A stretch of DNA of 62,829 bases, the filler included. It is 11 parts of 11 records of this genome, joined end to end, with 100 filler letters (N's around TTAATTAATTAA, not from the genome) between each part and the next. Parts side by side here need not be neighbours in the genome. Positions count along the whole stretch, not along the records: positions 1 to 4,044 come from SRR7504441_2731; positions 4,145 to 8,477 come from SRR7504441_2734; positions 8,578 to 12,882 come from SRR7504441_2738; positions 12,983 to 17,989 come from SRR7504441_2746; positions 18,090 to 27,465 come from SRR7504441_2747; positions 27,566 to 30,604 come from SRR7504441_2748; positions 30,705 to 40,713 come from SRR7504441_2752; positions 40,814 to 44,403 come from SRR7504441_2758; 3 more parts are not named here. One strand, written 5' to 3'. Shown piece after piece: positions 1,853 through 62,000 of the stretch (positions are counted from its first letter, which is position 1; the number at the start of each line of letters is the position of its first letter). The translations under genes and the position numbers were made by a program. The notes beneath the pieces are model-generated. The model saw only the letters and a program-made list of their open reading frames with translations, did not search any database and was not told where the DNA came from.

Positions 1853-2619
1853 ATGGGCGAAGCGGACGACTCGATGGGCGACTTTGCAGCGACCTGGGCC
1901 CAGTTCTGCGAGAGTGAGCGGCATTTCGAGCTGCCGGGCGGCCAGTTGGCGGTCAGCCAGGACTGGTCGGTCGGGCACGGCGGCACCGTGTACGACGCGG
2001 CCTTGACGGCGGTCAGGCACTGCGTGGGCAAGGGCGAGCCGTTCTGGCGGGCCAAGCGGGTGCTCGAGCTCGGGAGCGGGACAGGAGCGGTTGGGCTGGC
2101 TGCGGCCAAGCTGGGGGCCCGGCCGGTGTGCCTGACCGACGTGCCGGGGCACATGGCGCTGCTCGAGGCCAACGGAAGCGGCCTGGATGGGGTGGACTGG
2201 CAGCCGCTGGTGTGGGGCGAGCCGGTGCCGCCGGGGCTGATTGGGCCGGACGTGCTAATCGGGTGCGATCTGATCTACGCCACCGGGCGGGGCGGGGAGA
2301 GCCACAGCCAGTCGATGCAGCAGGCCGAGCAGGTGCACGCGGCCCTGGCCCGGACGATCGACCAGGCGGCGCTGGAGGGCACGCTGGTGCTGCTGGTGGG
2401 CGAAGGTGCCCCATGGGTGGGGCCGGCTGATCAGGGGCAGTGAGGGAAGGCGGGTGCGCCGGGTACTATGAACGGTTTGTGGGGCGGATGCGAGAGCTTC
2501 GGTTCGAGCTGCTGCACCAGTCGAGCCAGCCGGAGGGCGCGTACGACGCCCAGACCGGCCAGAAGAACCCGGTAGTTGTGTACGAGTTCAAAAGGCGGCC
2601 AAGTCAGGCACCCGGATGA
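1853..2619 (+). CDS. METTL21/family-16-like SAM-dependent protein-lysine methyltransferase; one intron 2406-2440
   Basis: GGTVYDAA, RVLELGSGTGAVG, CLTD, LVWG, LIGCDLIY motifs; removing the 35-nt GT-AG intron gives an open C-terminus ending ...PVVVYEFKRRPSQAPG*. Confidence 0.85.
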
Positions 2620-2948
2620 GCCACAAGCACTAGGCGTGAACGATGAATTGAATTCATGGTTCCTTTCATACGAGTATGGCTGTAATGACTATACATGTAT
2701 TCCTTGGCAAGAACAGACGTTTGCGAATAGCTAATTCCTGCCTAATTCGTGAGATAGTCGAGTCTGACGGCAGAACTCATGCAGAACTCGGCCAGCTACA
2801 ATCCGTACTATCATGATTGTATCGGCCAACTCGGCAATATTTTCGCAGCGACACAACAAAAGTGGAGCGACACAACTGAGGAGTGGCACGCGATCGGCAC
2901 GCGGGCGGCACTCAGCTCGCAGCGTGATAACGGAAGAAGAGTGAAGAC

Positions 2949-3942
2949 ATGGTCAGCGACTCAGCGAAGCTGCGAAAGCGGCGGGCTGAGGCGGGGGCGG
3001 CAGATCCGGCTGTCCTCCTCGCAGCGCGACCGGATCCACGAGCTGCTCGGCTTCGTCCCAGGGATCAGGTCCGGCCGCGCGCCGCTCCCGGCCCGAGCCG
3101 CGGGCAGCCCCGAGGCGGCGGTCAAGCTGCTCCGGGCCTGCAGCTGGAAGATCGACGTGCGCCCGGCCCAGCCCTATGGGCCAGCCGGGCCAGGTGGCGC
3201 TCAACGAGTTCTACGACAACCCGTCGGCCTACGGACCGAGCGTCGACATGGAGGCCATACAGGCCGAGTTTAATAAATACGCCGGTGGCCAGCCGGGCTG
3301 GCGGCGGCAGAGTCCGGGGGACAGAGGAGGGGGGCGAGATGATCACGATGGACAAGTGCCTGGAGATGCACGACGTGGTCGGGGTGGCGGATGGGCCGGG
3401 CCGGGGCCGGAGTCGGACCAGGTGAGCGGTACCGACCTACAGACGCTGGTCTTCTATTTCCAGTTCCGGTGCCAGGTGCAGGGCGCAGTCAGCCACGAGG
3501 AATTCGTGCGCGGGCTGGTCCGGAACGAGTGCCCGAGCCGGCCGGGGTCTGGGTTAGGTTGGGCAGGTGCGAGAGCCTCGAGGCGCTGGGTGAGCTGCTG
3601 CCTGAGCTGACGGAGCAAGTCACGTCCAACCCTGCGCTGTTCAAGCAGTTTTATGGCTTCTGCTGGGAGTTCGCCCGGGAGGTGCAGACGGCCAAGATGC
3701 TCGGGACGGAGGAGGCGATCCAGACCTGGGAGCTGGTGCTCGAGGGCGTGTGGGAGCAGCTCGGGCTTTGGTTTGAGTTTGTGAATGAGACTGCGCCCAA
3801 GGGGATCACTAAGGACCAGTGGAACCTGCTGCTCGACTTCATCCGGCAGGTCAAGCCGGACATGAGCGACTACGACGAGGACGGGGCCTGGCCGTGCTTA
3901 ATAGACGACTTCGTAGATTGGGCCAGACCCAAGCTAGCCTAG
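2949..3942 (+). CDS. DCN1: DCN1-like cullin neddylation E3 (UBA-like + PONY domain); 6 introns
   Basis: Introns 2952-3003, 3069-3107, 3157-3193, 3285-3324, 3384-3421, 3529-3566 join frames into ...AVKLLRACSWKIDVALNEFY...FKQFYGFCWEFAR...GITKDQWNLLLDF...YDEDGAWPCLIDDFVDW. Confidence 0.92.
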
Positions 3943-4839: not shown

Positions 4840-6521
4840 TTACACCCTCAGCCGAGGCGTTGCAAGGACGGCCTCGGAGGTGGTGTAAATACTGCTCATG
4901 GCGAATGATGTGGCATTCAGGAGTCTCACGGGTACTGTTCCAGTTGCTGTGACCGCCATGTTGTCGAGTGAGGTACCGGCAGGAATCTCAAACGTCATTG
5001 CAACACGGCCTTCTTGCCAATAGGCTTCTCCAACAGTGCCATCGACAAAGATGCGCATTGAAACATGCTCGTCTTGGGCAAGAAGCGGAAGATCATCCGT
5101 GCCACCACCAGAGGCACCAACGCTCACTCTATACACGTCAGAATCGTTGGAAGGCACATAGTTGATGTACACAGAGCTCTTTCCGAACGAGACAGTAATG
5201 TCAGTTGCAGCTGCAGGCTTCTCAAAGAAGAGTTCAGTGTCCGATGCGCTCGAGATCGGCAGCTTGGCCACTGGGAGGGTGCTGGCTGGAAGAGAGGCGA
5301 GCTGCGTAGTGTGGAGTTGATCCATTTCGTCGACTGGAGTGTACACAATCTGTTTGATTCCAGGGTGGTAAGTCATTTGGCGTGGGATCGTCTGGATCCC
5401 GCTCGGTACGGTCCCCCAAACCCACATGATCCGCCGGTTCTTGATTGGGTCGTGAAAGTCCTTACTGGCGTGTGTCTTGCCTTTGTCCAGCTTGACGCTC
5501 GCTGAGCCAGGGGTTTGGACCCAGGTTCCGACCGTGCCCTTGCCCTGAGGCCCTGGTTGGCCGTCAGTCCACTGACCAACCTGGCACTGGTCGCCCCCGG
5601 GCCCGCCAGACTTATGCACGTGAGTAGGAAGCGCCCCATGACTCTCGACGAATGATTCACTGCCGGGAGTGAGTGCTGGCAAAGGGAAGAATGTGGGGCA
5701 GTCGCCGGCCATCAGCGTTGTGCACCCGATCTTGTACCACTCTACAAAGTCCATAGAGCCGTACATTGGATTGCCGCCTTCCGGGGGGCAGCCCTGGTTC
5801 CCAATGATCCGCCACTCTCCGGCCGCGGTCTTCCAGGCCGTGCTAGGGTCGTCTCCGGTGTTGTTCAGTACTGGGTTGCTCAGCTGCTTGCCCCCGATCG
5901 AGCCGGACTTGCTCCACTTGGTGTAGAGAGGGTCCGATGCATTCTCAGGCACCACCACCACGTACGTGGAGCCGCCGTGCCCGTCGTTGCAGCCCGGTCC
6001 GCCGCCGGGGCCGTCTCCTCCGTTACACATCCCGGGGTACATGATCACAGGTTTACCGTCCACGATGGTGGCCGAGCCGGTGTAGATGGCCACATTGTCA
6101 TAATACTGATCGTTCCAGATGGCCACCGGGAGCCGCGCCCACTTGACGAAGTCCCGAGAAACCCAATGCCCCCAATCCGGGCCGTTACCGGCTCCGTTCA
6201 TGTCGAGTGCAATATGGATCTGGTAGAAGTTATGGTAGACGCCGTGCACCGGGTCGTAAAATGGCCCGTTCGGGTCGTTGATGTCTGCAGCAGCCGGTGA
6301 GAAGGCAAGCAGCCGGAGGCGGCACCGCAGCTCGGGTCGGCCAGGTGAAAAGTATACTTTGGCGGGCTGCCGATGCACTGCTGATTGGTCGGGGTGCAAG
6401 GCCCACCGGTGCAGTTGACGCACCGCCGCCAGCCGCAGCCCTCCAGCCCGCTGGCGGTCGCCGCGCAGAGGAGGAGGCCAACGATCGCGAGGGTCACTGA
6501 AGATGTGGAGTGGCACGCCAT
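4840..6521 (-). CDS. Secreted glycoside hydrolase family 32 (beta-fructofuranosidase-like); intron 6285-6325
   Basis: Signal peptide MACHSTSSVTLAIVGLLLCAA; after splicing FHLADPSCDINDPNGPFY...YHNFYQ...WGHWVSRDFVKW...IYTGSAT...ASKDFHDP...RRIMWVW. Confidence 0.9.
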
Positions 6522-6599: not shown

Positions 6600-7752
6600 A
6601 TGAGCGGTGATCGGAGCGGCTGGTGTCGGCTGGACGACCAAGGCGCCGAGCTCCAGCCCACGCTGCCAGCTGCTCCGGCTCCCAGGACCTCCGACTGCGC
6701 TGCCCCGCTCCGGCTGGACACGCGCTTCACAGTGGCATCGCTGAGCGAGATCGACACCCTGCGCCAGTCGTTTCACGCCGAGATATACGTGGAGAGCCGG
6801 GTGGTGGGCGCGGCCGAGGCGCAGGTGCCGTTGGAGCTGGATCTGGAGCTCGATTTCATCAATAAAGCCGGCTCGCTGGACGATCTGGTCCCGGCCACGC
6901 TCCGCCGGGACGGGGACGACCTGCTGTTCACCTGGCGGCTGATCGGCACCTTCACGGCCGAGATGAACCTGCACAGCTTTCCGTTTGACCACCAGCAGTG
7001 CGAGCTGCTCTTCACTAGCAACCTGCCGTTCCGGAACGGCCCTCGAGTGCCGTCTCCAAAACAGGAAGTCCACCTCCGGGCCGAAGCTGATCGATGCGTC
7101 TTCATGCACAAGGGGTTTGTCGGGAAGAACGTGTTTCAGTTCCAGCGGCTCGATGTTTCTGAGGATTACTCGGATGTGAGCGAGAGTGGCAGCGGGAACA
7201 TCTACGGCAGGATTCCGGTGGTGATCCACTTGCGGAGGAGAGCTGGGTGGTACTTTTGGAATGTCATCTTTCCTACAGGTTTCCTATTGTGCAGCGTTGC
7301 TGACATGGCTGCGTGCAGGCTGCATGACAGCCCTGGCTGGGGCCTCGTTCGCGGTTCCAATCATCGACATTGGCGACAGGCTGGGTGTGGTGCTGACCGT
7401 AATGCTCACCACAGCCGCTTACAAGATTGTGGTAGCGAGCAAAATCCCGGATATCCCCTACCTCACGCTGCTCGACAAGTATGTTGTGGGCTCATTTGTC
7501 CTCCAAGTGTTTGCGCTCATCTTGACTGTCGTGCTCTACTTGTGCAGGCACATGTTTGGTGAGGAGAATTCAAGAGCAGTCGACATATGCGGTGAGCGAG
7601 TGCACAAGGCAGCGTCGCTGACATGGTTGCGTGCAGGCTGCTCCTTCTTTTACCTTGTTTGCATTCTCTTCAATGCAGTTTGGAAGCGAGCAGCCACGTC
7701 TGCACTTCCGGAAGTAGTCTCGCTAATCGAAGAACTGAGAAGTAGTCTCTAG
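6600..7752 (+). CDS. Cys-less pentameric ligand-gated ion channel (pLGIC) subunit; introns 7279-7318 and probably 7592-7636
   Basis: SLSEIDTLRQSF, EMNLHSFPFDHQQC (Pro-loop), LRRRAGWYFWNVIFP (pre-M1), DRLGVVLTVMLT (M2), PDIPYLTLLDKY (M2-M3). Confidence 0.85.
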
Positions 7753-8878: not shown

Positions 8879-11448
8879 TTAGTCCATGCGCTCGTTCAGG
8901 TCAGCGAGCGTTTCATCCGCACTCTCACCCTCTTGCACAAACCTCCAAGCTTTGATCACCGACTTGCGACACATGAGCAAGTTTACCTTGAGCTGCCGCA
9001 GGCTGTTATCAGCTGGTCCAAGGGTATGTTCCAGCGTTTCTGGATGGTAATGTAGTAGTGTAGCAAGATACCAGTAGTCTTCGCCTGCTTTCCCCAGCCG
9101 GAAAAACAACTGCTTGCCGACGATTTCTTGCCCCCACCCGAGTGACTCGCGGTCAACTGGCGGTGGGTCGATCAGGGTTGACTCAAACTCCTCGAGCGGC
9201 AAAAGCATGCACTCGCTGTTGATGCTAGACCACTCGCAATCCGGGATCGTGTCCCTGGGCCAGCGCAAGAAAAAATCGCTGGGAGCCGTGCCCCGCCGAG
9301 CAACGGGACCAGCCCCAATCACGCCGCAGTGCCCGTACAGTACTGGGGGTTCTAGTACTGTTTCGTCGTCATCGTCAACCGCAACGAGTCGCACGAGGTA
9401 GGCACTGTCCTTGAGTTCAAGCAGGCGCCTCAGGTACCCCTTTGGCAAACCGTCCGGTGAATCGGGCCGATCTGGCTCCGATTGATGGGACAGCACCTCT
9501 GCATCCGCTCCGATGGCGTCTGCAATCCGGCCAGCCTCGCGCAGGCCACTCAGTATAGCTCCGTGCATTGTGGCTGGGTGCTGGCTAGTGGTGTGCTCTC
9601 CCGCAAAGAACAGCCGTGTATCGTCACTGGGCTTGGCCAATTCATCGTGCACATTGCCGGTGCAGCCCACAGCCATGTAAGAGTAGCTCCCTCGGCTCCA
9701 TTTGTGCTGTCGCCAGCGCGTCATGTATGTGTGGCTTGGATCCGGTGCCTGCAGTCCTCAGCTCAGACCAGACAAGCAAAGCCCGTTGACCGTCGGGAAT
9801 GTGGCCCGCAACTTGCTCATCGCGTGGCTGCATAGCTCGGACTCGGTCTGTTGCTCGCCCCACTCGGCGCCCTTGCCTGGGTTAGGGTTAGGGTTAGGGT
9901 TAGCGACACTTGCCTGACATCAGAGCAACCAGCACAAATCCACCTGCCACAGGCGACACATCCCACCACTGCATTGCCACCCCTGGCAACACGTCCGCTG
10001 TCACAATCCCGAAGAAGTCGCTGTCCTCCGACCAGAATCGCCGTTCAAACCTCAGCACCAGCTTGTTCACCAGCCCAAACCCGAGCCGGTCAATCGCATC
10101 CAGTTTGGACTTTGCCAGCCCGGGCGAGAACTGGAGCTTGCCCGTCTTGAGCACCCCTAGAGGCGCTGTGCACAAGACGGCTGCGCCAGAGTATTCCTGG
10201 CCATCAGCAGTCCGGACCGTGGCGCCGTCCGAGCGGTGCGCGATTTCAGTAACGATTGCACCACACACCACAGTGCCCTTGAACAGCCCTCGGAGCGTCT
10301 GTACAAACTGAGCCGTGCCGCCGGTGATCCAGGCATGCTCCCCGGGAAACCCGTGCTGGCTGTCCATATCCCAGTAGCGGGCAGAGCTACACTCGAGCGG
10401 CGCGCCGTTGCCATACTCGATGCTGCAACCGGAGTCAGCACCTAGGTCAGCTGGAAGGCGCGTACTTTGACAAGTGCCATGCAAGCACTCGACGCTCGGG
10501 CTCCGGGGCACGCAGCTTGTCCAGCTCGCCATTCACCGCCTCTGCCAAAGACAGCTGGTCCGAGGCCGACTTCTGCTCACGGGCGAGCCTCTCCATCAGC
10601 CTGTCGAGCAGCCGCTCCGTCTGACTGTCGAGGTCCTGAGGCACTGGCTCACTGTCCTGATACAACGGGCAGCGTGTGTGCCGCAATCGATGGAGCGCCA
10701 GCCGTTGCTGGACCGTCAGCTGGACAAGTGGGTTCTGGTCTACTCCAGTCACCACCGCAGCGCCTGCGTCCACACTGCAGCCATCCCCAAGCGCAGCTGA
10801 GCGAACCCGACCTCCGAGAATCTGATCAGCCTCAAGCAATACTGTGTCCACTCCAAAGCTCTGCAGGTGCACCGCCGCGGCCAGCCCAGCCAACCCTCCG
10901 CCGACCACCACACAGCGCGTCGGCCCGGATCTCACCGCGGAGGTCAGCCCGAAGTTGATTAGGCCAAGCCGGCTGAGCACACCGAGCTGTCCACCGGCTC
11001 GCTCGGAGCAGTCAAGCCGGGCACACCGCGACTGACAGCACTGGCCGGTGTCGCTCCTGGATCCGTCGGGCCACCCGAGCCTCTGTTAGCCGAATCCTGC
11101 CGCCCGGCTGTCAAACCAACCCGGTGGCCTGTACCACCGCGGCGAATCCCACCACATGCGGAGCACCACATTGCGCACGCTGGCATAGACAGCCGCTCCG
11201 GGTCGGACAGTCAGCGGCTGGGTGGCTGGGTCGCGTTGCAGGATCGCCAACTCGGCCGGGCCCGGGGCATGCTGCGGCAGCCCGAGGTTGTAGGCCACTG
11301 TCCGCTCGCGTTGATCTAGCGTCTCCGCATCCTCCTCCGATGAGTGGGCCGAATCCTCTCCGGGCGGCGGCCCGACCGCCTTCCGCTTCCTGCCCGATCG
11401 CCGCTCGGGCACACGACTTGCCAACGCCGTATCAGTGGCTCCTGGCAT
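8879..11448 (-). CDS. KDM1: LSD1/KDM1-like histone demethylase (SWIRM + FAD amine oxidase + C-terminal Tudor-like region); 5 introns
   Basis: SWIRM-like [13 protein letters not shown] and [74 protein letters not shown]; introns 9749-9790, 9877-9913, 10423-10465, 10987-11026, 11097-11137. Confidence 0.9.
9879..9903 (+). repeat. Interstitial telomeric repeat (GGGTTA)4 inside a KDM1 intron
   Basis: GGGTTAGGGTTAGGGTTAGGGTTAG read directly. Confidence 0.95.
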
Positions 11449-11724: not shown

Positions 11725-12882
11725 TTAGGAGTCTGTAGGTGGCGGCTCGACAAGCAGCGCCTCTTCGTTTCGGCGCCGCCTCTCGACCTCAGCCTCGCTA
11801 TAGAATAAAGCCTCACGCCGCCGATACCCCTCCCGAGCTTGCTCGGACTGTTGGAACAAAGTGGCCTCCTGCCATCCCGTGATGCAGCTGGCTCCTACAA
11901 GCCGGGCACCACGCGAGGCTTGGGCTGCCTGTACTCCATGTGCCCCGGAGTCTCTAGTGACGGCCGGCTGCCGCCCGACTCGCGAGCCACCTCCAGTTCC
12001 TGGCACCAGTCAGCCCAGTCTACACCAAACTCACCGCAAGCTTCACAACGCAATTGACCGATCCGAGCAGCTCGACTGTTGCCGCTGCCATCTCAATCGC
12101 GCCGATCTTGGCCGCAGCGCTGTCGATGCAAGCCGGGTCCGAGGGCAGCCCAGCCACCGCCGTCTCTAGAGCCTGCAGCCATGCAATTGGCCGGCCGCTA
12201 GCTGATTGAGCGCCTGGGCAAATTCGAGAGTCGGGAGCCGCACCAACTGCTGCTTCCTGCCCACGTCTCGGGGGCACCGCCCCGCTTTGTGGCACCTCTC
12301 TGTCGGCGCGCTGTGGGCTTTTGCCTCAGCCCTCAACGCAGCTGCGGCCTCAGTTTCGGCCCAACCGGCGCCTCGGACCACAGCGGCCTGAGCCAGCTCA
12401 TCCCAGGCCGGCGGCGGGCTACCATGCTGTCTGGTACCAGGCATGGCCGCATGCAAGTGATCGCAGCGCGAACTGCCGCCGCGACCAGCTCTGCGAGCCG
12501 GATCAGCTGTGCTGGCTGTGATCTCACCGAGCTCCGGCTGGTCTGGGCCCTCGAGAATCAGCGAGGCCACTCCTGCCGGTGGCTGAGCCAGACTGTCGCG
12601 GGGCAGGGCTGCCGTCCTGGTTGGGTAACCCGGTGAAGCTGGCCATGCTCTGATGCTCGAGCCTTGCGCTCGCCGCGCTGCTTCACTGGCTCAGGGCCCG
12701 CGCCGGCTGCCACCCGCCTGCCCAGCTGACCCGGCTCGATTGGTGGCTGGTCGGGCCCCAGTGAGCACACCGCCGCCTCGGCCGCCCGCGCGAGCAGCGC
12801 AGCCATAGCGGCGTTGACTCCAGCTACCGCCAGCACCTGCCATGCTGCTGATGCTCGCATGCGTCAGACCCACCCCGCGGCT
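11725..12882 (-). CDS. Hypothetical alanine-rich helical protein, multi-intron, 5' truncated
   Basis: Successive minus-strand frames can be joined by ~40-nt introns, ending ...EVERRRRNEEALLVEPPPTDS*; no family recognised. Confidence 0.5.
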
Positions 12883-13131: not shown

Positions 13132-16100
13132 ATGCTCGAGGGGCTGTTCGCGGAGACGCTGTCCGGGCTGCTCGGCGACTGGATCGAGGACATAGACGGC
13201 AACCAGCTCCGGATCGCCTTCCTGCAGGGCGCTCTGGACCTGCGCGGCGTCAACGTCAGGCGCGACGCTATCTCACAGTTCGGGTTCCCGCTCCGGGTGA
13301 AGCGGGGCCGGATCGGTTCGCTGCACCTGTCGGTGCCCTGGGCCAATCTCAAGAGCGAGGCCACCAAGCTGGTGATCAAAGACGTGTACATCCTGCTCGA
13401 GTCGTTGCCTTGGCAGCCCGACGGCTACCAGAAGAGGAGAGAGCGGGCCAAGATGCGGGCGGTTGACCGGGGGCTCCGGCCGATCCAGGCTAAGCTGGCC
13501 CGGGGCTCGAGTGACACTGGCTGGGCGGGCATGCTGCTCCAGACCGTACTGGACAATCTGCAGGTCAAAGTACACAACGTGCACCTCAGGTTCGAGGACT
13601 GCACCCTGCTCCAGCCGCCGCACGTGGCCCCGGGCACCATGATCGCCGCGGGGCTCTTCCTGCACTCTTGCCAGGCCTACACGACCGACGCACAAGGGCG
13701 AGCAGGAACCTCGCAGAGCAGCGCCGTGGTGCACAAGACTGTGGCAGTGCAGGGCCTGGCAGTCTACTGTGACATCGACCAGGCTGGGGACGGGTTCGCG
13801 GCCCCGGTGGTGCTGGACAGCGCTAGTTCGTTCAGCAACCAGATGCTCTCGCTGATGCGGCTGCTCCAGGTGCGAGCTCCTCCTGGCGCGGGCCAGCCTC
13901 GGGCGGCAGGCCGGCCAGCTCAACCCGCCAAAGCACCACTACCTGCTCCAGCCCATGTCGGCTGTGACTGCCTTCACCCATACCCGTTATCTGCTGCCCG
14001 AGATGCCAGCCGACACGCCCGAGTACAAGCTCACGCTCGAGGTGCCTCTGGCTGGCCCAACCACCAGCCGCTCGCGCAGGTCTGCCGGGCGCTGCAGCTG
14101 TCTCAGCAGGCCTCCTTCAACCTGCATCTCTCAGAGACCCAGCTCTGGGCGCTGGCCTCCTTCACAGAGCACTGTGTCAGGTACGGACGTGCCGAGCGCT
14201 TCCGCTGCCTCCGGTGTGTCATGCCTGTGGACTTCTAGTGAGCTTGCCACAGACCAATGCTCGTGATGCCGCGACCAACCGCCTCGCGCGCTGCCTGCCT
14301 GCTCTGGTGGCAGTATGTGCTCGAGTATTTAAAGCAGGAAGCCAGGTGCAGTCCGGTCGGTGCTGCCTGACTAGCCTGGCTCCTCAGGAGAGCTCGCTGG
14401 AGAGTATCAGCAGCTCAATTGGCCCAGCGTCGGCTAGACCGGTGCAGATACTCTCAATTGTACGAAAAGACCAAACAGATGCCTTGGGCCGAGAAGCCCA
14501 CCCCTGCAGAGGAGCAAGAATGGAGCCAGCTCCGTGCCCGGCTCTCGGAAGACGACATTGTTTTCTTCGAGGCACAGGCCGCAGCAAGCCTCGTGAGCCG
14601 GGGACAGGCGCTAGCTATCCGAGTGGCGCAGTGCCGGCAGCTGCAGTACGACAGCATCCGGCAGTCACAGTCGGTCTGGGCCAGGATATTCTCGTCAGAT
14701 GTGCTGCTAGTCGGTGCGCTCTGCCCCAAGACCCTCCTAAATCGCAGCCAGGTGAGCTGTCCGAGGACGAGCTCTCAGCCGCCAGAACGCTCTTCTGCGA
14801 GGACGTCACAATGGCGCTCACTCGACAGGTGCAACTCGAATGCAGCTTGAGTGCGCTCTCACTCAGCTGCACGGTCTCTGACCACTGGCACCGGCCAATC
14901 GTCTCGTTGACCAGCCACAGGCTGCATCTCGAGTGCCGGCAGCTGTCCAGTCGGTTTGAGCTGAGGTACTTTTGCGGCGCGGTGGAGGCTATCGACCACT
15001 TTACTGTGGACTCCAGCTGTCCACACATGGTCAAGTCGACAGAGGCCAGCCCCGAGGAGACTGGTAAGTTCCTTGAGTCAGTGGAAAAGCGCCTGGCGCA
15101 GTTGGAGCAATTCAGCAGGCAATTTAGCAGTGAAGATAAACGGAGTGCGGAGAAGCTGCGAATCGCTCTGGTGCGCTCCGCTTCTGTTGGTGCTTTTTTA
15201 TTTGCGGCTGTGCTTGCAGGATCGGGCTGCAAGCATGAAGCAGCACGGCTGGTGTGTCGAATATCAGAGCAGCGCCGGGGAGCATCAGAGGGCGGAGGTC
15301 TTATGGTATTCAACTGACACAGTTCAGTTTATCATCAGTCCGCCCTGCATTAAGCGAATCAGCACTGTGTGGGCTGCTCTGTCCGGCTTGGAGCTGTACA
15401 CGCTCCGTCAGAAGGCACACGCCAGGCCCCAGCACACCAAGCAGCCGCTGCAGACGCTGGTCACGATTTGCATCCGTGTACCTGTTGTTAATCTGCCGTT
15501 GACGGTGACCGACCCGCATCACGCGGTGCTACTGGCAGACGCCCAGACTTTAATCTGCACCACGCACCAGAGCACGTCGGGAGGATTAGAGCAACTTTAT
15601 TTGGTATGCGTGCAAGGAGTTGGGTTTCACGTCGCGCCCTCGCTGGACCTGGCGGCCAAGGCGCCGCTTTGTGCTGAGCCATTCGACTGCGTCATGTCTG
15701 TGGAAGGTAGCAACGCTTCGTTGCTTGAAGTCACAATCCAGAGCGAACTGCGACTGATCCTGAGCCAAGAGCACTATCAGGCCTTGGCTGGAATTCTCCT
15801 CTCGCTACACAGAGTCTTTGCCGATGGCTCCCCAAGAGAGGTAGCGGGGTCCGCTTCTCCAGGTTCCAGTCCAGGCAGGACAAGCCCAAGCTTGGGACGG
15901 CTCCGCCCCGCATCGTGCCGACGCAATCCTCGGCTACTCGGAAACCCATTCTTTGTTGTTAAACTTTCAACATGCGGGTTTTCTCTGACGCTGTCTGAAG
16001 AAACCTTGTCAGTAGACCTGCAAGCCAGCATCGCAAGCTTGTCTTTAGAGCTACAAATCTTCCCGGACGCCAGCACAATGTCGCTTAGGGCGGGGAAACT

Positions 16101-24042: not shown

Positions 24043-24291
24043 GATAGACTATGTAAATGTAACTAGTATTTACTAACAACTATAAATGAACAACAAATGA
24101 CATTATTGTTGAAGGTGTCTTTACTAAGTCTTGACGATTATAACGCTGGCGTACTCGTCGTGGCCGTGTCCTAGCCATGACCCTTGTGGCCGCGTATGCG
24201 TAGCCGGTGAAATGTCTCCACTCAGGATATCTCTCACAGGATGATGCAAAATTTTGCCTGCAAAATCCTTCGAATTCGATTGCAGACTGCA

Positions 24292-37085: not shown

Positions 37086-37322
37086 CTGAAGTACCTACCT
37101 GGGCGTAGATATTAAGATGGCTCGAGTCATCATTCTTAATAGTCGAACCTTGCAATTGTGATTGTCAATGCGACGGAAACCAACTAGTACTGGTAGTACT
37201 CGTATTAAACCAGTAATGCTATAAAATTAATGGTTTGTCAATTAATGGCGATGGTCGAGGAGATGACTGATACTGATACGCAGGATGTATTGAGTCACTG
37301 ATTGGGCGACACTAGATCATTT

Positions 37323-40881: not shown

Positions 40882-41220
40882 CTAGGAGCCCGGACTAAAA
40901 TTACGGCTTACTTCCACTGGGAATGCAATCGCGGTTGCCATGAATGCGATCTTGGCATCTCGATTCAGTTTGTACCTATACTCGTCACAAAGCTGAATCC
41001 CTCGCGTGATGCCAGAGAACTCGCTATCTGCAGTCTGCCTAAGCACCTGAGCAGCAGCATCAGTCAACCTCGCACCGGTTCGTCCGGGTGATCGTCGTCC
41101 AGCACCCGCGCCGCGTGGGCGACGATGCGCTCCAGGCTCGTGCCATCACAGATCATGCTGCCCCACGGAGACTGGCACAGCGCAAGCCGCTCCATTTCTG
41201 TGCCTTCAGAGTCACGCATG
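40882..41220 (-). CDS. Possible small hypothetical protein
   Basis: Two ORFs joinable only by an unusually short intron; no recognised motif. Confidence 0.3.
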
Positions 41221-48601: not shown

Positions 48602-49062
48602 TTATACGTAACTCGTTTAATCAATAGTACAGTTGAGCATCGATTGTATTGATAGTTCGGCGTAATCCATGCTGTGAGCCCCGCTGGGAGATCTCTATGG
48701 AGCACAACCAGGATCGGCCGCCCGGGTTCGTGCGTGCAGAAGTTAGCAGTTTGGATCTGCGGCGACTCTAGGGCACATCTCTTTCTAGTCGAATCGATCG
48801 TACTGAAATCAATCGTTGATTATTCGTTGACGATGATTAATGTGTTCGATGATGCAATACGTGTACATGTATACGCATTCAAATCTAGTGAAGTAGTAGT
48901 GAAGTACATGTAGTAATGAAGTATAGTGAAGTACTTAGTAATGAAGTGAGTTTCGTTGCAGGTTGTGAATTCACGGAATGTGAATCGAGCAAGATTACTG
49001 TGATGCAGCTATCGAGACATTGGATCCACGTTGGGTAACGAACATCAACTCCAGATGCAAGG

Positions 49063-49368
49063 TCACTTCATGCACGCCTTGCAGGCGCAATAGCCGTGTC
49101 CAGTGGACATTCTGCCCGACCGCCAGTTCATTATACTACTTGTATTGACTGGATCTCTAGCCGCCCCGAATGCCAATGAGGGCTGCGTCGCACTTGCCGC
49201 CCATCCATGGCCGGCCCGATCGCAATTGTTGGTTTTCGCCTCCCAGCCCCGCGCGCGCATGAGCTCTGCGGCGTAGTCGGCGACCTCTTCAGACGGTAAT
49301 TTTCTGTAGTAGAACGCGGTCGGGCTGCGTTGCAGGCACCGGCTGCGGGCCTCCAAGTCCTCATGCAC
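49063..49368 (-). CDS. Possible small hypothetical protein
   Basis: ORF only; C-terminal GHGYCACKAC; no family recognised. Confidence 0.3.
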   Translation of the reverse strand: MHEDLEARSRCLQRSPTAFYYRKLPSEEVADYAAELMRARGWEAKTNNCDRAGHGWAASATQPSLAFGAARDPVNTSSIMNWRSGRMSTGHGYCACKACMK

Positions 49369-49709: not shown

Positions 49710-50903
49710 ATGCAGCAGCCTGCGCTCTCAGCGGCCCGCCCGGCCTACTGGGAGGAGCCGTCAGAGCCCAGGCCGGCCGCTTCGAGCGACCCGACCTCGA
49801 CGCACCACGCGCCCTACTGGGAAGGCTGCCTCCGGTGTGAGCAGCTCGAACGTGAGAATGCCGAGCTCCGGCGGGCGCTCGCCGAAAAGGAGCGAGCCCG
49901 GTCTGAGATGGAGCGGTGGGCCCAAGGAGCGGGCCGGGTCTGATGGCCGTCTGGCAGCGCGCGGGATTCGGCGGTGGCAGCGCATGATCGTGATGCCCGG
50001 CTGTGGGCCGCCGAGCGGGAAGGGCTGCGGGACGAGGCTGCCCGGCTGGAACTCAGGTGCTAGCCCGGCCTGTAGGGGGGCAAGCCCGTGTGGTGCAGCC
50101 TGCAGGCCGAGCGTCAGCGCTCTCAGGACCTGGAAGACCGGCTGAGGCGGCTGCAGGCGGCTTTGGAGGCCTCCGAAGCCGAGAGGACCAGACTGGCCGC
50201 CGCGCTCGCAGCTGCGGAGGCGGAGCGGGAGAGGCTAGCTCGCGCCCTGGCCGAGTCAGAGGAAGTGCGTCGGATGCTTGAGGCACGGCTGGCCGAGGCG
50301 GAGGCCGATAACAGCAGGCTGGCCGCTGAACTGGCCAGCTGCCAGGAGGCGCTCACGCTGGCCCGCGAGCTTGCTGCCAGGCTGCAGGCAGACTTGGCGG
50401 CGGCGCTGGCCGAGCGGGACGAGCTCAGGCGGCGGATGGCCGAGCTCGAGGCGGAGCTAGCCCGGCTGCAGGCGGAGCTCGATGAGGTTTGAAAGGCCAG
50501 CTGCCGGGCTAGAACCGGGACAGGCGACGGCCAAGATCGCGGCGCTGACTGCCGAACTCGCTGCAGCCCGGGCAGCGCTCGAGGCGGCCTTGGCAGAGAC
50601 GGAGCGGCTGAGGGCCGAGATGGATGCGCCCGGCAAGAAGCCGGAGGTGTGCGGGGCGGCTGGGCGGGTTGTGTGAGCGCTGGGCAGGTTTTGCTGACCT
50701 TCCCTTACTCCAAGGCACCGGCGTTGCTGTCCCCAAACAGGGTTGTGTGCTCGGTGTGCAACGGCTGGCGGACCTGGCAGCCACCCAGGCTCGATGACCA
50801 GGATGACGGCGACGAGCGATCGGCACCCGAGCTGCCGCCGTTTAATCACGATATCGTGCACCCAGAATTGTACCCGGAGCAGTACATTTGCGACCGGATC
50901 TAA
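49710..50903 (+). CDS. Coiled-coil hypothetical protein with CxxC motifs; 4 introns
   Basis: CLRC then A/E/L/R heptads, VCSVC near the C-terminus; frames joined by ~37-42-nt GT-AG introns. Confidence 0.7.
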
Positions 50904-54703: not shown

Positions 54704-56685
54704 CTAACGTTGTGTGACATTCCGGCGGCCACTAGTGCGGCGCCTCCTCGGGCTAGTGCTTTGCTTCAGTTGGGTTGATGGCCAGAGCTCATCGGAACGT
54801 TCGAAACAAGCTCCCTCGAGGCAGAAGCACTCGACTAGATGCTTTGGCAAAGTGCGATCCGTCCTCAGTTGCACGAGCAGCTCGTCGATCTCGTCCGCAG
54901 TCGGGCCCAACTTGACTTTCTGCACCAGGAGCCATCCATTCGAGCAGCTCTCCTTGGACGGGTCTGGTCGAGTGAGCAGCACCATATCACTGAGCACGAT
55001 CAGAATCCATTGATCGTCCCTGTCAGCAGCACTCACGCAGGCACTGATGGCACGCACCCGATCCGAGCTTCACACCATCCCTTGAACTCACGACGCATCG
55101 AGTCGCATATGTCGATCGGGGCGTCAGTCAAGTGCATCTCTTGCTCCTTAGCGGCCCAATAACCGAGCCGCTCGTCAACGGACCTCGTGCGCATGAGCGC
55201 CGGTGCCCCTGGCGTCACTGTGGTCCGTCTCTGCTCTTGAAGGAGGGGGGGTCCGCTAACGGCACTTGACCGCGGGGAGCTTGTCCACCGCCGGCCGTTC
55301 CCCTCCGCAGGGCTTCCACTCAGCGGGCTCCCCGCAGGGCTAGAGTTTGCTGAGCTGCCCGAGTCATAGCTGGCGAACCGGAGCTTAGATCGGCGCTGCG
55401 TTGCATTCGCCTCCCTGGCCGCGTCCCACCAGTGCAGAGTAAACGGCGAGGTCCAATCGAGCTCTTGCTGGACGCCGCTCAGCGCAGTGACCACCGGGTG
55501 GCTCAAGCCCTTGTGATTGCCTACAAGCCGAGTGATCTCCAGCTTGGCTGCCTCAAAGTCGGCATTTGTGTCTGCGTACCGCCTACCTGTGCTCCTAGTC
55601 ATGTGCAGCCTGTCTTTCTCCGGGGTCGGCCTGCATCCGGCCGGGAGGGTGGGCAGGTTGAGCAATTTCATCCGCTCCTTTAGAATGCAGTCGTACCCAA
55701 TCAGACCCTGTCCACATATTACTAGAACGCTCATTCAGCCGCCTACCTGCATAGGATCGAGAAGCAGGCTGTTGAACTTCAACGGCAGCTCCCCGTCATC
55801 CGAATGGAGTGTCTTGTCCAGTCGGCGCATTGACTGTTTAAACCGTCGATCCGAACGCTTCCTGGCCTCACACTGTCAGAGCACCAGCGGGGCCATTCAG
55901 CACCTCTGGGTGACTGCGTGCTTAACAGGCGTCATCAGCACCTGAAATTCGCACACCAGCTCCCACTGCGCCACCGCCTTCTCAAATACGTCCGCGTAAG
56001 ATCCGTTGCTCGCCGCCTTGCCTACTATTTGGACCATCCTCTGGCGTATAACTAGCATCTCCTTGCATACTTGAGTCAGCTTATCGAGGGCCTGGAGCAC
56101 CCAGCCGTGCGGATCGCTCTCGCCGTCCAGCCACAGTAGCCGCTGGGCCCGGAGCGGTCGCAGGTACTTGTTTACTAAGTTATTCATGTTGACCACTTGC
56201 TTGCGCGCCCGGCTCTTGAGCTCCTGAACGTTGGAGGCGCACATGAGCAGGTCCCGCCCGAAACGGTCCACCCCGTGGTTGTCGATCAGTTTGGTCAGTC
56301 GCCAACGGAACAGCCACCACCGGAGGAACCGCTTGATTACCCGCAGCGCCCGCTGCCGGAGCTGTCCGGCGCGCAGCTCAACCATCAGCGGGCCGTGACC
56401 CTGCTGCCACGGCTCCCACAGCCGGCTGCTCTCAAGCCGCCACTGGCCCGGGCTCTCCCCGGGGCTGAAATCGAGCGTCACCACCGCCCGGGTTGGCTGC
56501 AGCTGTTGGTCCCAGTCCGGCGTGAGTACTGGGGTGAGCAGCTCCGCCGGCGCGGCTGACCTCTCGGCCGGGCTCCCTTCGCGCGGGGTGGCCACAGCGG
56601 CCGGCCGGCGCCTCGGCGAGCGCCTCGGCGAGCGGATCGGCTTGCGGATCTCAGCCGCCGCCGGGCCCGACTGGCAGGCGCCCAT
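54704..56685 (-). CDS. Divergent RhoGEF (DH + PH-like) protein, N-acylated; 3 introns
   Basis: MGACQSG; spliced FNSLLLDPMQGLIGYDCILKE matches the DH consensus LxxLLIxPxQRxxxYxLLLKE; WILIVLSDMVLLT PH-like strand. Confidence 0.62.
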
Positions 56686-57851: not shown

Positions 57852-58534
57852 TCAGCCTTCACTGCCAGTCTGATCCATCGCCTGCAACCCTCGATTAATC
57901 TGCAAGTCGACCGGATTATCACAATCACCTCACGAATGAGCGCAGCAACGCGGCTCGAACCACGCTCCTCCGCCATCTGGAGCGGAGTCTTGCGCTCCTG
58001 TATCCGCTTAATGGTCGGCCGAGCCTGGCGCTCGCCTTGTCCTTGGCCCTTACGTCGGCCTTTGCCGCCAGCAGCAGCTGCACGACGTCCTCATGCCCGC
58101 AGTGCACCGCTTCATGCAGCGTAGTGTACCCAAACTGCCCGCAACAGGCTCTCACCTGGCTCGCCCGATCAGCGCACCGTGTCTGTCTTGAGCTCGGTAT
58201 CGGCCTTGGCCTCCAGCAGCAGCTGCACTCCCTCGGCGTCGCCCGCCTCAGCCGCCCGATGCAGCGCGGTCCAGCCACTCTGCCGCCTGCTCACCGGCCG
58301 GCAGGCTCAGCTGGGCACCCGCTCCTTCCCGTTGGGCCAGCCCTTGGCCTCCAGCAGCAACCGGACAGCCTCGGTGTGGCCACCGCGCGCGGCCAGGTGC
58401 AGCGCCGTCTGGCCGAATTGGTTCTCGGCCCGCAGTGCCGCGTGTCGGTCCCGGGCCAGCTGGCCGCTCAGAAGGGGCACGTCTCCCGACCCGGCAGCCC
58501 CGAGCACTTTCTCGTCACTCACCCCGCACCCCAT
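57852..58534 (-). CDS. Ankyrin-repeat protein; introns 58280-58318, 58135-58177, 57998-58035 and a probable fourth
   Basis: GQTALHLAARGGHTEAVRLLL, GWTALHRAAEAG..VQLLL, GYTTLHEAVHCGHEDVVQLLL, KTPLQMA. Confidence 0.9.
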
Positions 58535-59075
58535 CGCGCTGTCTTTCATAACGGAATTTACCCAACCTCTTACCAACCTCTATACTGACCGTGACCCTGC
58601 ACACAACCGACGTGGTCCCGAGACACCCACACGGATGTGGACCGGATGCGGAGACCGCCATAAGATACTTTCAAAGTATTCAATTAATGTCAATCAGTTT
58701 ATTGAACCGTGCTTCAAGTATAGCTTCAAGGTGCCTTCCATGCGTCAAACACGTCAGTGCCCGCCCGCTTGGCTTGAGCACGGACGCAATTCTCCATCCG
58801 GCGCCAGCCCTCCTGGCGCGGATCCCACTGCTCCTCGGCGTAGTGATGCAACGGATCATTCGCATCAGCCAGCCCGGCCTCCGCAGCCCATTGCTGCGCG
58901 TTCCCTCTGCACGCCCCCAGCCGAGTCGCGAGCCCATACATCCAAATCTGCCCCTCCATCACCCTCCCCCCCCCTNNNNNNNNNNNNNNNNNNNNNNNNN
59001 NNNNNNNNNNNNNNNNNNNTTAATTAATTAANNNNNNNNNNNNNNNNNNNNNNNNNNNNNNNNNNNNNNNNNNNN

Positions 59076-62000
59076 ACGGTGCTGCGCTATGTAGCAACAG
59101 GAGGCCGTGGGCCAGGTTCGTTTCCAGCTGCGTTGGCACGTTGCACTTGCAGGACTATCGTAAGGCTCGAGATACTCACGTGGAGGCCGGGACAGTTCAG
59201 AGTCATCCAGAGCACTCCACGGAAACCGTGATTGTCTGTAAACCAACACAGCGAGTTGTTTGGTCAAATCATTAGCTTCTGGTAAGTGGGCCCCTGGCCG
59301 ATGTTTGCCATTAAGGATACTCAAAACTGTATGAGCATTGGTTCCAGAATACCCAAATGAGCTCACTCCTGCTGTTCTACCCATAGATGTGAAAGTTGCC
59401 AACTGCGAAGCCAGCGGTACGGTGACGGTGTCCTCAAGTGTGGGATTTTGCCGAGAGAGATGCAAATCGGGAGTGACACAGAGGATCTTGAGTCCACATA
59501 TAGCTTTAAAGAGTCCCATCAACCCGGCAGCTGGCTCCGCATGACCCACGACTGTTTTCACGGCCCCTAAGTACACAATATCTTGTCCCACAGCCCGCAG
59601 AGCATGCGTTTCGATCGGATCACCCAGCTGCGTGCCTGTACCATGCGCTTCACTTGCATGAGCTGCAAGACTCAAAAGCTCGATGGCCGAAGCAATGACA
59701 CGGGTTTGGGCCGGCCCGCTCGGTGCCATGAGCGATGCGCTTTTCCCGTCCTGGTTGGTTGCAGATCCGACCAACTGTACCATGTGAGGACCGGTGGTGT
59801 CAAGAATGCCCGCAGCACACCCATCTGCGCGCCCAAAGCCATTTGCTAACGCGTCAAATGTCTTACAATACCCATTGGGCGCAAGCACTCCCAGAGCGCT
59901 CAGGCTAGCGGAGCTTGAACAATATACCATATTAGCAGCAGCGTACAATGCTTTTGAGCTGTGAGCGAGCTGCAGTGTCTGATAAGCGCAATTCAGAGCA
60001 ACCAATCCAGAAGAGCACGCTGTTGCAACGGACACAGATGGACCAGTTAGTCCAAAACTAAAGGAGACACGGCCCGCACAAATAGCACAACTGTTGAATG
60101 CGGCGTACGAGGAGGCTACTGCGCGCTTAGTTTGGATCGAAACCGGGGACTCGTTTAACCCCATGAAGACAGCAGTGTCTGACCCATTCAAACTCTGCCG
60201 GGTGTAGCCTGACTTGAGAAACGTCTGAGCGGAGCATTCAAGAAGCAGTCTCTGTATGGGATCTGTCGCACGTGCCTCAGCTGGAACCATGTGAAAGGCA
60301 GCATTGTCAAACTGGTCGGCTGTTGCAAGCCAATAAGCTGGTGGCACCTGTACACTTTCCAGAGCACCTCGCTCGGCAGGAAGACAGCTTGATCTTGTTC
60401 CTAGGTTGCAGAGCCCCGACCAGACTGAATCAATAGATGCACTTCCTGCCATCACTACCTCCAGTGACTTGAGAGCACAAACTGGATGCTGAGTCTTGGG
60501 CCTCGTCAGCCGATCAGTATTCAACATAACAACGCCATCAGGTGCGGCATCATCTGCCCTTACCGATACTCCGTCGTTGGCCGCCTGAAGAAAACCAATA
60601 ATCTCGCGAGCAGTCGGAAAGCTGAAAACAAGCATGCTAGGAAGTCGTAGTCCAGCCGCTCCAGTTGTTTCCTTCAATCGCTGAGTAAGTTCTGCTGCCT
60701 GCTTAGATCTTATACCAGCTTGCATCAAGGGTTCATCAAGATCTAGCTTCTTCCCAAGCATGGCCTCCAGCTGACGTACAACAGCCCTCTCAAGGGTATC
60801 AATTCTGGCCTCACTTTCACCTGAGGGATTATTGTAGCATATCAGACAGTTTTCAGACTTTTGCAGGAAATCTGTAGGTCTGTGCCATGTTTTGCACTGC
60901 ATCTGTCCACTCTGCACGTATTTCGTCTCCCGCTGGTGCTCAACAATCAGGTGCACATTTTCCCCGCTCACAGAGGTGCCGCTGACGCTGCTCCAGCTCT
61001 TTGCTTCGCTCAACGGCAGACAAAGAGCCTCAACAGTGGGCAGGCACAGCTCAGCGGTGCGCTTTATCAAAGGTATTGGCATGGTGATATTCACGTGTCC
61101 AGGTACAGAATGGTGCTGCATGACCAGGCAAGTAGTGACAAGCCCTAGGAACCCTGACGCATACTCACTGTGTCCAAAGCAGGACTTATGGTTAGCCAGG
61201 ACTAATTGAATGCCTTGCTTGTCTTGTGTAAAGACCTCACAAATGGCCTGTAGCTCTGGCACATCGCAAGGGGGACTGCCCATGGCGTGCAGGTGGGTGG
61301 TGCTTACATAATTAGCCTGGACATTGGCGCGAGACAGTGCATCTGCTGCAGCCCCCGCGATTGTGTCTGGATCAGCAAACCCGATTGGGAATTTAGTGGG
61401 CGTTCTGACACTGGCTGAACCCACCAGGGCGATGAAGTCAGCCACTCCTGACAAGGCTTCACTCTCAAGCAAAACTGCACCTGCTGCTTCCCCCGCTACC
61501 ATGCCATCAGCAAACGCCTGCCACACCCAACCATCAGTCAGCTCTATCAGCTACTCACATCGAGTGGTTGCATCAATCCGGATTTCGATGAAAACGGCGA
61601 ATGAAACTGTGGCTTAAGCAGCAGCTGCACTCCACCTACGATTGCTGCCTGGCATAGGCCGGTCTTGATTCGTTCGTGCCCTTTGTGTATCGCCAGGTAT
61701 CCACTGGAGCAGGCTGCATCTACGTTGCTCAGTTCAGCGTCCATGCCCAGCTTCATGGCAAGCAAGCGCGGGACATAAAATGAGCCCAGGGGTGGAATGG
61801 CAAATAATCTCACATCAGCAGCTGTGAACAGGCAGAGGCGTCTTTCTCTGAGAGTGCCTTGAGTCCAGCCGGCACTTAGAACCGCCTGCTGGGTCACAGC
61901 GATGAGAACCTGCATGTGTGGATCCAATGCAGCTCCGTTCTGTGTGGTTAATAATTCTGTTCTACAATGAGGTGCACTGGGGGAGATAAAGGATTCGGCA

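Follow-up and report, generated by a model that had tools for sequence, protein, structure and literature searches.

Very short introns in a 62.8-kb GC-rich window: inverted repeats are probably for the most part by-products of base composition

The stretch of DNA analysed here (62,829 bases, hereafter the window) has a GC content of 0.50-0.61 per 4 kb and carries genes split by introns of about 40 nucleotides (nt), which are the subject of this report. Its long open frames encode eukaryotic proteins, comprising GH30 and GH32 hydrolases, an LRR kinase, a mitochondrial ATP synthase gamma subunit, a type I polyketide synthase, an amine oxidase, the N-terminus of VPS13, Kelch repeats, DCN1, a lysine methyltransferase and a Cys-loop channel domain. 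A first-pass annotation, made from the sequence alone, had described some 60 such introns, many of them lacking a pyrimidine tract and carrying a stem that ends at the 3' splice site, and had proposed that they are defined by length plus RNA structure, or else that the stems are relics of intron-generating elements bearing terminal inverted repeats (TIRs). The number and the size class stand, with 58 introns in a strict set and 73 in an extended one. They are probably ordinary U2-type minimal spliceosomal introns, GT-AG with a few GC-AG, a reading that leaves out both a structure-based definition and inverted-repeat transposon relics; their inverted repeats are mostly by-products of composition.

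Introns were called with our own dynamic-programming gene finder, which combines codon log-odds, jumps from GT or GC to AG, re-estimated splice-site matrices and a length prior; a plain listing of frame-restoring GT..AG pairs was rejected as an intron test, since decoy dinucleotides give equally many and the listing is thus unspecific. Under a flat penalty, 23 of 57 GT-AG calls fall at 35-44 nt, against 4-14 of 44-64 calls for six decoy dinucleotide pairs. Early passes chained genes and over-called (103 calls). Minus-strand calls at 33800-37300 were rejected as antisense to the NF-YB gene or upstream of the ATP synthase gamma gene, some of these false calls having come to light because the latter is a single exon; plus-strand calls at 1321, 36611 and 39751 were also discarded. 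The core set (n=58) requires a GT donor, a length of 33-52 nt and coding support that reaches 2.5 on either side of the intron, with strand-conflict regions removed. The extended set (n=73) adds 15 plausible calls chosen by eye from the gene-finder output, which include five GC-AG introns and two that were prompted by the first-pass annotation (43682 and 18253). Splice boundaries were set by matrices trained on the same data, a choice blind to structure and common to the chimera control used below; the search itself required GT/GC..AG ends, and a frame-based finder cannot detect stop-free introns of a length divisible by three.

Homologues or profile coordinates confirm at least 12 splice junctions exactly, in five genes, the remaining introns being predictions of coding-potential gene models only. 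The five-intron model of the DCN1-like gene aligns to P0123 and P0124, two homologues known from transcripts, with no gap at any of its junctions; identity in the last exon is 67-70%. The unspliced DNA, compared by tblastn, shows insertions exactly at the five intron sites. For the region upstream of the amine-oxidase domain, a SWIRM-region profile was built from 49 homologues in a representative library; the product spliced at 11097-11137 and 10987-11026 yields one 65-bit domain, gapless at both junctions, while the unspliced region yields pieces of 19 and 11 bits that end at the junctions. Pfam gave no SWIRM match in single exons, and a homologous-protein search with the amine-oxidase exon gave no match, the homologues being supplied by the representative library. 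Exons of the NF-YB gene match positions 3-31 and 48-65 of CBFD_NFYB_HMF with a 15-residue exon between them, which confirms two introns; two neighbouring ankyrin exons each hold exactly one repeat (Ank profile 2-32/33 and 2-33/33), which confirms one to three; and the FMO exons beside 43682-43728 match positions 3-61 and 65-235 of an FMO-like profile. RNA contigs of two runs cover 23182-24053 only, an intron-free part, and show no joints; no RNA read across any junction was obtained. The 73 calls are given below with their basis and their folding z-score against dinucleotide shuffles (two values where two runs were made).

2406..2449, plus: 44-nt intron, methyltransferase gene; gene model; alternative acceptor 2440, both in frame; z -0.34
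3069..3107, plus: 39-nt intron, DCN1-like gene; homologue alignment; z 0.33
3157..3193, plus: 37-nt intron with strong hairpin, DCN1-like gene; homologue alignment; z -2.90
3285..3324, plus: 40-nt intron, DCN1-like gene; homologue alignment; z -1.02
3384..3421, plus: 38-nt intron, DCN1-like gene; homologue alignment; z 0.51
3529..3566, plus: 38-nt intron, DCN1-like gene; homologue alignment; z -1.80
6285..6325, minus: putative 41-nt intron, GH32 gene; gene model; z -0.20
7279..7318, plus: 40-nt intron, ligand-gated channel-like gene; gene model; z 0.18
7592..7636, plus: putative 45-nt intron, ligand-gated channel-like gene; gene finder; z 0.62
9749..9790, minus: 42-nt intron, amine oxidase gene; gene model; z 0.56
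9914..9959, minus: 46-nt intron, amine oxidase gene; gene model; z 0.39
10423..10465, minus: 43-nt intron, amine oxidase gene; flanking exons match Amino_oxidase profile 1-119 and 179-301; z 0.90
10987..11026, minus: 40-nt intron with strongest hairpin, SWIRM region; 49-homologue profile; z -3.77
11097..11137, minus: 41-nt intron with hairpin, SWIRM region; 49-homologue profile; z -2.51
11390..11427, minus: putative 38-nt GC-AG intron; gene finder; z -0.62
11869..11909, minus: 41-nt intron; gene model; z 0.04
12000..12034, minus: 35-nt intron; gene model; z -0.95
12173..12213, minus: putative 41-nt GC-AG intron; gene finder; z -0.74
12257..12295, minus: 39-nt intron; gene model; z -0.51
13870..13909, plus: 40-nt intron, VPS13-like gene; gene model, upstream exon VPS13_N; z 0.58
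14042..14079, plus: 38-nt intron with hairpin, VPS13-like gene; gene model; z -2.99
14214..14252, plus: 39-nt intron; gene model; z 0.18
14346..14387, plus: 42-nt intron; gene model; z 0.11
14714..14751, plus: 38-nt intron; gene model; z 0.52
15171..15219, plus: 49-nt intron; gene model; z 0.27
18253..18292, plus: 40-nt GC-AG intron with hairpin; gene finder, added from the first-pass list; z -3.29
19692..19737, plus: 46-nt intron with hairpin, joining two long open frames; gene model; z -2.63 / -2.19
20775..20816, plus: 42-nt intron; gene model; z 0.43
21804..21855, plus: 52-nt intron; gene model; z -0.75
24166..24203, plus: putative 38-nt intron; gene model; z -0.74
24537..24577, plus: 41-nt intron; gene model; z 0.88
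24719..24759, plus: 41-nt intron; gene model; z 0.59
28378..28423, plus: 46-nt intron; gene model; z -0.27
31305..31341, minus: 37-nt intron, Kelch/RING gene; gene model, downstream exon a weak RING match; z -0.29
31552..31595, minus: 44-nt intron; gene model; z -0.96
32267..32308, minus: 42-nt intron, Kelch gene; gene model; z -0.06
32472..32510, minus: 39-nt intron flanked by two Kelch-repeat exons, both matching Kelch families; z 0.61
32650..32690, minus: 41-nt intron, Kelch gene; gene model; z 0.12
32761..32802, minus: 42-nt intron; gene model; z 1.34
32860..32900, minus: 41-nt intron; gene model; z -0.45
33777..33818, plus: putative 42-nt intron, 5' part of NF-YB gene; gene finder; z 0.36
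33864..33904, plus: putative 41-nt GC-AG intron, NF-YB gene; gene model; z -0.20
33940..33979, plus: 40-nt intron, NF-YB gene; gene model; z 0.03
34074..34116, plus: 43-nt intron with hairpin, NF-YB histone fold; CBFD_NFYB_HMF coordinates; z -2.79
34164..34202, plus: 39-nt intron, NF-YB histone fold; CBFD_NFYB_HMF coordinates; z -1.12
34268..34306, plus: 39-nt intron, NF-YB gene; gene model; z -1.77
34360..34414, plus: putative 55-nt intron, NF-YB gene; gene finder; z -1.18
34445..34485, plus: putative 41-nt intron; gene model; z 0.60
34595..34634, plus: putative 40-nt intron; gene model; z -0.17
37992..38031, minus: 40-nt intron; gene model; z 0.39
38133..38172, minus: 40-nt intron with weak stem, a first-pass example; gene model; z 0.36 / 0.30
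40033..40075, plus: 43-nt intron; gene model; z 0.14
40296..40335, plus: 40-nt intron; gene model; z 0.21
41035..41075, minus: putative 41-nt intron; gene model; z 0.09
42699..42740, minus: 42-nt intron; gene model; z -0.77
42795..42834, minus: 40-nt intron; gene model; z -0.57
42895..42932, minus: 38-nt intron; gene model; z 1.12
43682..43728, plus: 47-nt intron with 8-bp hairpin adjoining CAG, FMO gene; profile coordinates, from the first-pass list; z -3.54
43899..43949, minus: doubtful 51-nt intron call, antisense to FMO gene; gene model; z -0.27
45282..45331, plus: putative 50-nt intron; gene finder; z 1.01
48726..48771, plus: putative 46-nt intron; gene model; z 1.21
49062..49103, plus: putative 42-nt intron; gene finder; z 0.13
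49916..49957, plus: 42-nt intron; gene model; z 0.18
50057..50098, plus: 42-nt intron; gene model; z 0.87
50487..50523, plus: 37-nt intron; gene model; z 0.72
50647..50687, plus: 41-nt intron; gene model; z 0.94
55020..55057, minus: 38-nt intron; gene model; z 1.61
55708..55746, minus: 39-nt intron; gene model; z 0.41
55862..55903, minus: 42-nt intron; gene model; z -1.61
57998..58035, minus: 38-nt GC-AG intron following an exon of exactly one ankyrin repeat; Ank profile; z -0.85
58135..58177, minus: 43-nt intron between two exons of one ankyrin repeat each; Ank profile; z -0.11
58280..58318, minus: 39-nt intron of unremarkable fold, ankyrin gene, a first-pass example; z 0.39 / 0.50
61518..61558, minus: 41-nt intron, polyketide synthase gene; gene model; z -0.34

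The introns measure 35-55 nt (median 41, standard deviation 3.6), 66 of the 73 lying between 36 and 46 nt, and their GC content is 65%. Sixty-eight are GT-AG and five, or about 7%, are GC-AG (11390, 12173, 18253, 33864 and 57998), the latter mostly AG|GCG. The consensus of the 5' site is AG|GTGCGC, and the 3' end is G-rich and closes with CAG|G. Counted over the core set, the upstream exon ends in G in 88% of cases and has A as its penultimate base in 53%; the consensus from intron position 3 to 6 is G (71%), C (53%), G (52%) and C (47%). On the acceptor side, G accounts for 47-59% at positions -8 to -4, C stands at -3 in 88%, and the following exon opens with G in 71%. The lack of a pyrimidine tract, as previously claimed, is borne out: the final 20 nt before YAG are 47% pyrimidine, 40% G and 13% A, and pyrimidine runs of at least six occur in three of the 73 introns and of at least eight in none. 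A branch-like motif, CTRAY, is found in 20 introns against 3.8 expected (five-fold), with its A about 14 nt from the 3' end; the looser YTRAY is found in 25, and 48 are without it. The most over-represented intronic 4-mer is CCGG (44 seen against 15.5 expected from first-order statistics), with a density of 14.5 per kb in introns versus 7.2 per kb in exons; 27 introns contain it, 16 of them in two or more copies, and it lies mostly in the central part, while GCCGG and CCGGC are enriched three- to four-fold. The enrichment of CCGG equals that of the branch motif, and it may be a splicing signal or merely reflect low-complexity GC repeats. Two introns of one Cys-loop-channel-like gene (7279-7318 and 7592-7636, plus strand) share 33 nt at 94%, a stretch that includes the branch motif and the 3' end as well as three bases of exon; their 5' thirds and flanking exons differ, and the pair could be the outcome of a partial intron duplication or of gene conversion.

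Folding was compared with that of chimeras whose 5' and 3' halves come from two different introns; these retain splice-site consensus, end-specific composition and motif content and destroy intron-specific complementarity. The mean minimum free energy (MFE) of the core set is -12.65 kcal/mol, that of dinucleotide shuffles -12.31 and that of chimeras -12.73 (P = 0.56). The first-pass annotation had pointed to dinucleotide shuffles as a control, and against them no bulk excess is seen in the core set (mean z -0.15, t = -1.09, n=58); the mean z of the extended set is -0.32 (t = -2.26, n=73), and chimeras score -0.19 to -0.22. In the core set the distribution of z does not differ from that of 500 chimeras (Mann-Whitney P = 0.69, Kolmogorov-Smirnov P = 0.52); pairs between positions 2-12 and -12 to -2 average 3.42 versus 3.36 in chimeras (P = 0.43), with four or more in 40% of introns and 42% of chimeras; and base-pair probabilities along both ends are the same as in chimeras (last six bases 0.49 versus 0.52). 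Perfect inverted repeats of at least 6 bp are found in 8 of 58 core introns versus 15.3% of chimeras and in 11 of 73 extended-set introns versus 13.5% (P = 0.39), and those with a 3' arm at most 3 nt from the intron end in 4 of 58 core introns versus 4.8%. Folding energies were also computed for every combination of a 5' half with a 3' half, and an exact half-swap permutation test on this matrix, corrected for row and column effects, shows no excess for cognate pairs: for the mean P = 0.65 (n=58), 0.18 (n=73) and 0.38 (n=71, without the two introns prompted by the first-pass annotation), and for tail measures P = 0.13 to 1.0, or 0.13-0.44 within the 73-intron set. Covariation, sought between fixed positions (169 pairs, first 14 by last 14, core set), amounts to four position pairs that are pairable beyond permutation at P<0.05, where 8.45 are expected, and none at P<0.01. 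Relatives that could supply orthologous introns were absent from a first metagenome scan; a second returned DCN1 loci that belong to unrelated organisms and do not exceed 51% identity, and the three that were checked (L001-L003) aligned without intron-sized gaps.

Ten stretches had been quoted as examples of acceptor-touching stems. All ten are present, nine as GT..AG and one as GC..AG (18253-18292), but 29775-29816 has no convincing reading frame and the gene models do not support it as an intron, and the in-frame acceptor of 2406-2440 has an equally in-frame alternative at 2449. Five of the examples fold with z < -2 (43682, 18253, 3157, 34074 and 19692), whereas the other five are unremarkable (+0.50 to -1.74). 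Given that inverted repeats are as frequent in introns as 11 of 73, against 13.5% in chimeras, ten hand-picked stems among about 60 introns are roughly the number expected by chance; the caveat attached to the examples, that they were chosen by eye and that short stems arise by chance in GC-rich 40-mers, is in fact the main explanation. The positional bias toward the acceptor is real relative to shuffles, but chimeras reproduce it: at least three of positions -6 to -3 are paired in the MFE fold of 58% of introns, 68% of chimeras and 48% of mononucleotide shuffles. It is a property of the population's composition and not of individual introns, and the 3' arms of the stems lie next to CAG because the C-rich start after GT faces the G-rich stretch before CAG, with C at -3. 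The stems as a whole follow from GC richness, from this facing of a C-rich start and a G-rich end, and from the enrichment of the self-complementary CCGG and GCCGGC.

The data show the introns, their lengths, their composition and their equality with chimeras. How they are recognized we infer: across the intron, by four features, namely a length held tightly at 41 ± 4 nt or so; a 5' site extended to AG|GUGCGC; a branch motif of the CUGAC type, which at least a quarter of the introns carry some 14 nt before their 3' end; and a CAG|G acceptor. A pyrimidine tract is lacking, and the bases ahead of CAG are rich in G instead. Of the earlier proposal that length and RNA structure define these introns, the part on length, taken together with splice-site and branch motifs, is plausible in view of the very narrow length range and the missing U2AF-type pyrimidine tract, while the part on structure is not supported, the bulk being equal to chimeras.

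A heavy lower tail in the folding scores weighs against composition as the whole account. A z below -2.5 is reached by 8 of the 73 introns (10987, 43682, 18253, 14042, 3157, 34074, 19692 and 11097), whereas the rate among 2596 chimeras is 2.2% (binomial P = 0.0002) and among 3418 chimeras matched for GC 2.6% (P = 0.0007); the shuffle null gives 1.5%, and 438 exon windows matched for GC and length give 0.9%. Without the two introns prompted by the first-pass annotation the count is 6 of 71 (P = 0.005), and in the core set 4 of 58 (P = 0.064). Inverted repeats of at least 7 bp with a 3' arm at most 3 nt from the end occur in 4 of 73 introns versus 1.4% of chimeras (P = 0.019). Matched exon windows, the other control that had been suggested, show the introns to be slightly better folded (mean MFE -12.92 versus -11.24 in GC-matched windows, P = 0.0003; mean z -0.32 versus +0.06, P = 0.017). 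Together these figures hint that about five or six introns may carry hairpins beyond composition. The threshold of z < -2.5 was picked after the data had been seen, and a repeat run can shift z by as much as 0.4. With the cut set at z < -2, comparison with chimeras yields P = 0.03 and 0.09, and for the distribution as a whole an Anderson-Darling test yields P = 0.21.

The tail could be explained if about one intron in ten carried a selected hairpin, its 5' region pairing with the G-rich stretch beside CAG, the rest being unstructured; a branch-like motif would lie in or beside the loop, and the hairpin would join the reactive sites or shorten the distance from branch to acceptor, replacing the pyrimidine tract. 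Such a minority is unlikely, even though the excess of z < -2.5 (8 of 73 against 2.2-2.6% of chimeras) and that of acceptor-touching repeats of at least 7 bp (4 of 73 versus 1.4%) argue for it, the outermost MFE pairs come within 1-3 nt of the intron's last base in all eight hairpin introns, five of the eight are homology-confirmed (3157, 10987, 11097, 34074 and 43682), and 43682-43728 has one CTAAC inside the loop of its 8-bp stem and another before the stem. The excess varies with the statistic and the threshold, the half-swap test placing three introns below -2.5 standard deviations where 1.26 are expected (P = 0.13) and the Anderson-Darling test showing no departure at P = 0.21; moreover, the eight introns match the others in 5' site, branch motif, CCGG content, length and GC (all Fisher P > 0.37). 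A stem joining both ends of a 40-nt intron must also melt before U1, U2 and U6 can bind, which was counted against a hairpin minority. The mechanistic version of the proposal, in which a clamping hairpin in about a tenth of the minimal introns acts as an RNA-structural substitute for the pyrimidine tract and for U2AF65, is a shade more doubtful still.

Far less probable is the suggestion that intron-generating transposons, whether introners or MITE-like elements, created these introns and left the stems behind as decayed terminal inverted repeats. A few introns in the window are near-palindromes, and a precedent exists in Amoebophrya, where, according to passages of Farhat et al. 2021 (PMC7789003), inverted repeats of 8-20 nt join the intron ends of introner elements; the non-canonical introns described there, introner elements included, nevertheless average 120 and 240 nt in two strains. 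An all-versus-all blastn of the 73 introns with 10-nt flanks gave a single pair below E = 1e-5, the same-gene pair 7279-7318/7592-7636 (E = 1.7e-10), with similarity that reaches no further than the 3' two-thirds of the intron and three bases of exon, and no further intron copies were found in the 62.8 kb searched. Flanking direct repeats of the target-site kind do not go beyond the consensus (best run 4.21 versus 4.17 permuted, P = 0.37), one of 13 shifts in junction-window direct repeats, at P = 0.009, being lost after correction; terminal inverted repeats equal those of chimeras in the bulk, with a small tail excess, and cognate halves are no more complementary than non-cognate ones. That many of the introns are instead gene-finder artefacts in GC-rich open frames, in which case the length peak and the statistics would be meaningless, is equally remote. 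The first passes did over-call, some of the 103 calls being antisense or upstream of the ATP synthase gamma gene, decoy dinucleotides likewise restore frames at true junctions, and no RNA junctions were seen in contigs that cover 23182-24053 only; yet homologues or profile coordinates support at least 12 junctions, the GT-AG calls peak at 35-44 nt unlike the six decoy pairs, the branch motif keeps a fixed distance from the 3' end and is five times as frequent as expected, and dilution by false introns would not produce the equality with chimeras in confirmed genes.

Ordinary minimal introns of this kind have counterparts elsewhere. Passages of Iwata and Gotoh 2011 (PMC3033335) describe how, in fungi and protists, pyrimidine tracts shrink and intron length aids recognition, and how outside animals the tract trades off against branch-site strength; the introns reported here resemble the short introns of the compact protist and fungal genomes treated there in being mostly short and GT-AG, with length a probable aid to recognition, but differ from them in their tighter and lower length (median 41 nt), the GC-rich GTGCGC 5' site and a tract that is G-rich and not merely weak. 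The human G-rich ultra-short introns of 37-65 nt described in parts of Shimada et al. 2015 (PMC4463651), many of which lack a scorable branch site or 3' signal, are similar in length class and in having G as the commonest base; as presented in those parts they are rare (22 candidates), whereas here such introns are the default type in every multi-exon gene of the window. The mechanism proposed in the first-pass annotation, complementary end tracts that replace the pyrimidine-tract factor, corresponds to the bridging introns of Lin et al. 2016 (PMC4691745): in the sections concerned, zebrafish (AC)m-(GT)n introns do not need U2AF2 for splicing, and human bridging introns carry G triplets towards the 5' end and C triplets towards the 3' end. 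Skewed complementary ends are shared with that class, although their order is opposite here (C-rich 5', G-rich 3'); bridging introns, by the same sections, are very stable and their end tracts co-occur within introns far beyond chance, whereas here cognate ends pair no better than non-cognate ones. With introners, as portrayed in portions of Gozashti et al. 2022 (PMC9860276) and Farhat et al. 2021 (PMC7789003), the present case has in common a marine protist and a few introns with complementary ends. The introner elements of Amoebophrya, in the relevant passages of the latter, have non-canonical boundaries and direct repeats; in the 62.8-kb window, by contrast, no family, target-site duplication or non-canonical boundary was found, and the introns are several-fold shorter.

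Were the structural reading true, it would constitute a second natural case, after the AC/GT introns of fish, of spliceosomal introns pairing their own ends, and would bear on how very short introns without a pyrimidine tract are recognized. The evidence mostly removes it and leaves a modest but useful description of intron signals for an uncultured marine protist, whose make-up is unusual but not unprecedented. Signals such as these (about 41 nt, AG|GTGCGC, a G-rich 3' end, CAG|G, about 7% GC-AG, CCGG) would help gene calling on such genomes, and a folding excess in short GC-rich introns should be judged against position-preserving chimeras and not against shuffles alone. A published account of this set of signals was not found, no search having been aimed at the GTGCGC consensus, and no claim is made that it is unpublished.

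The source organism is read as an uncultured marine protist with a compact, GC-rich genome; a protein-atlas look-up yielded no useful taxon, and the passages found on single-cell genomes of marine protists contained no intron statistics. The intronless ATP synthase gamma frame (35281-36168, minus strand) is 99% identical to a metatranscriptome protein, and 99%-identical contigs are present in two marine RNA-type runs; among named relatives the best are proteins of oomycetes, with an identity of about 41-42%, and relatives of 62-75% identity are many in marine metatranscriptomes and none among named genomes. The end of one RNA contig, which has 8 unmatched bases there, falls at 24053, shortly after the stop codon (about 24040) of a large gene, and may be a transcript 3' end. 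Scans of the window gave no tRNA genes and no Rfam matches. Twenty blocks of 44 N lie in ten pairs, with 12 bases within each pair, every 3-10 kb or so between 4045 and 59075, and look more like masking than like gaps in the assembly.

Several genes show features of their own. The polyketide synthase (59028-62827, minus strand) is a multi-module type I enzyme with the order ACP-KS-ACP-KS; its third-position GC is about 0.5, compared with 0.6-0.8 in other genes, and it scores poorly under the codon model of the window. Within the amine-oxidase/SWIRM gene, four telomere-like hexamer repeats at 9877-9907 (minus strand) can be read as coding for (Asn-Pro)4 or as a 31-nt GT..AG segment. The NF-YB-like histone-fold gene (33705-34684, plus strand) is the densest in the window, with eight introns in 980 bases and about nine exons of 10-53 codons. 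At 57998-58549 (minus strand), successive ankyrin repeats occupy one exon of 33-34 codons each, with introns at the same position of the repeat, a layout that suggests duplication of an exon together with its intron.

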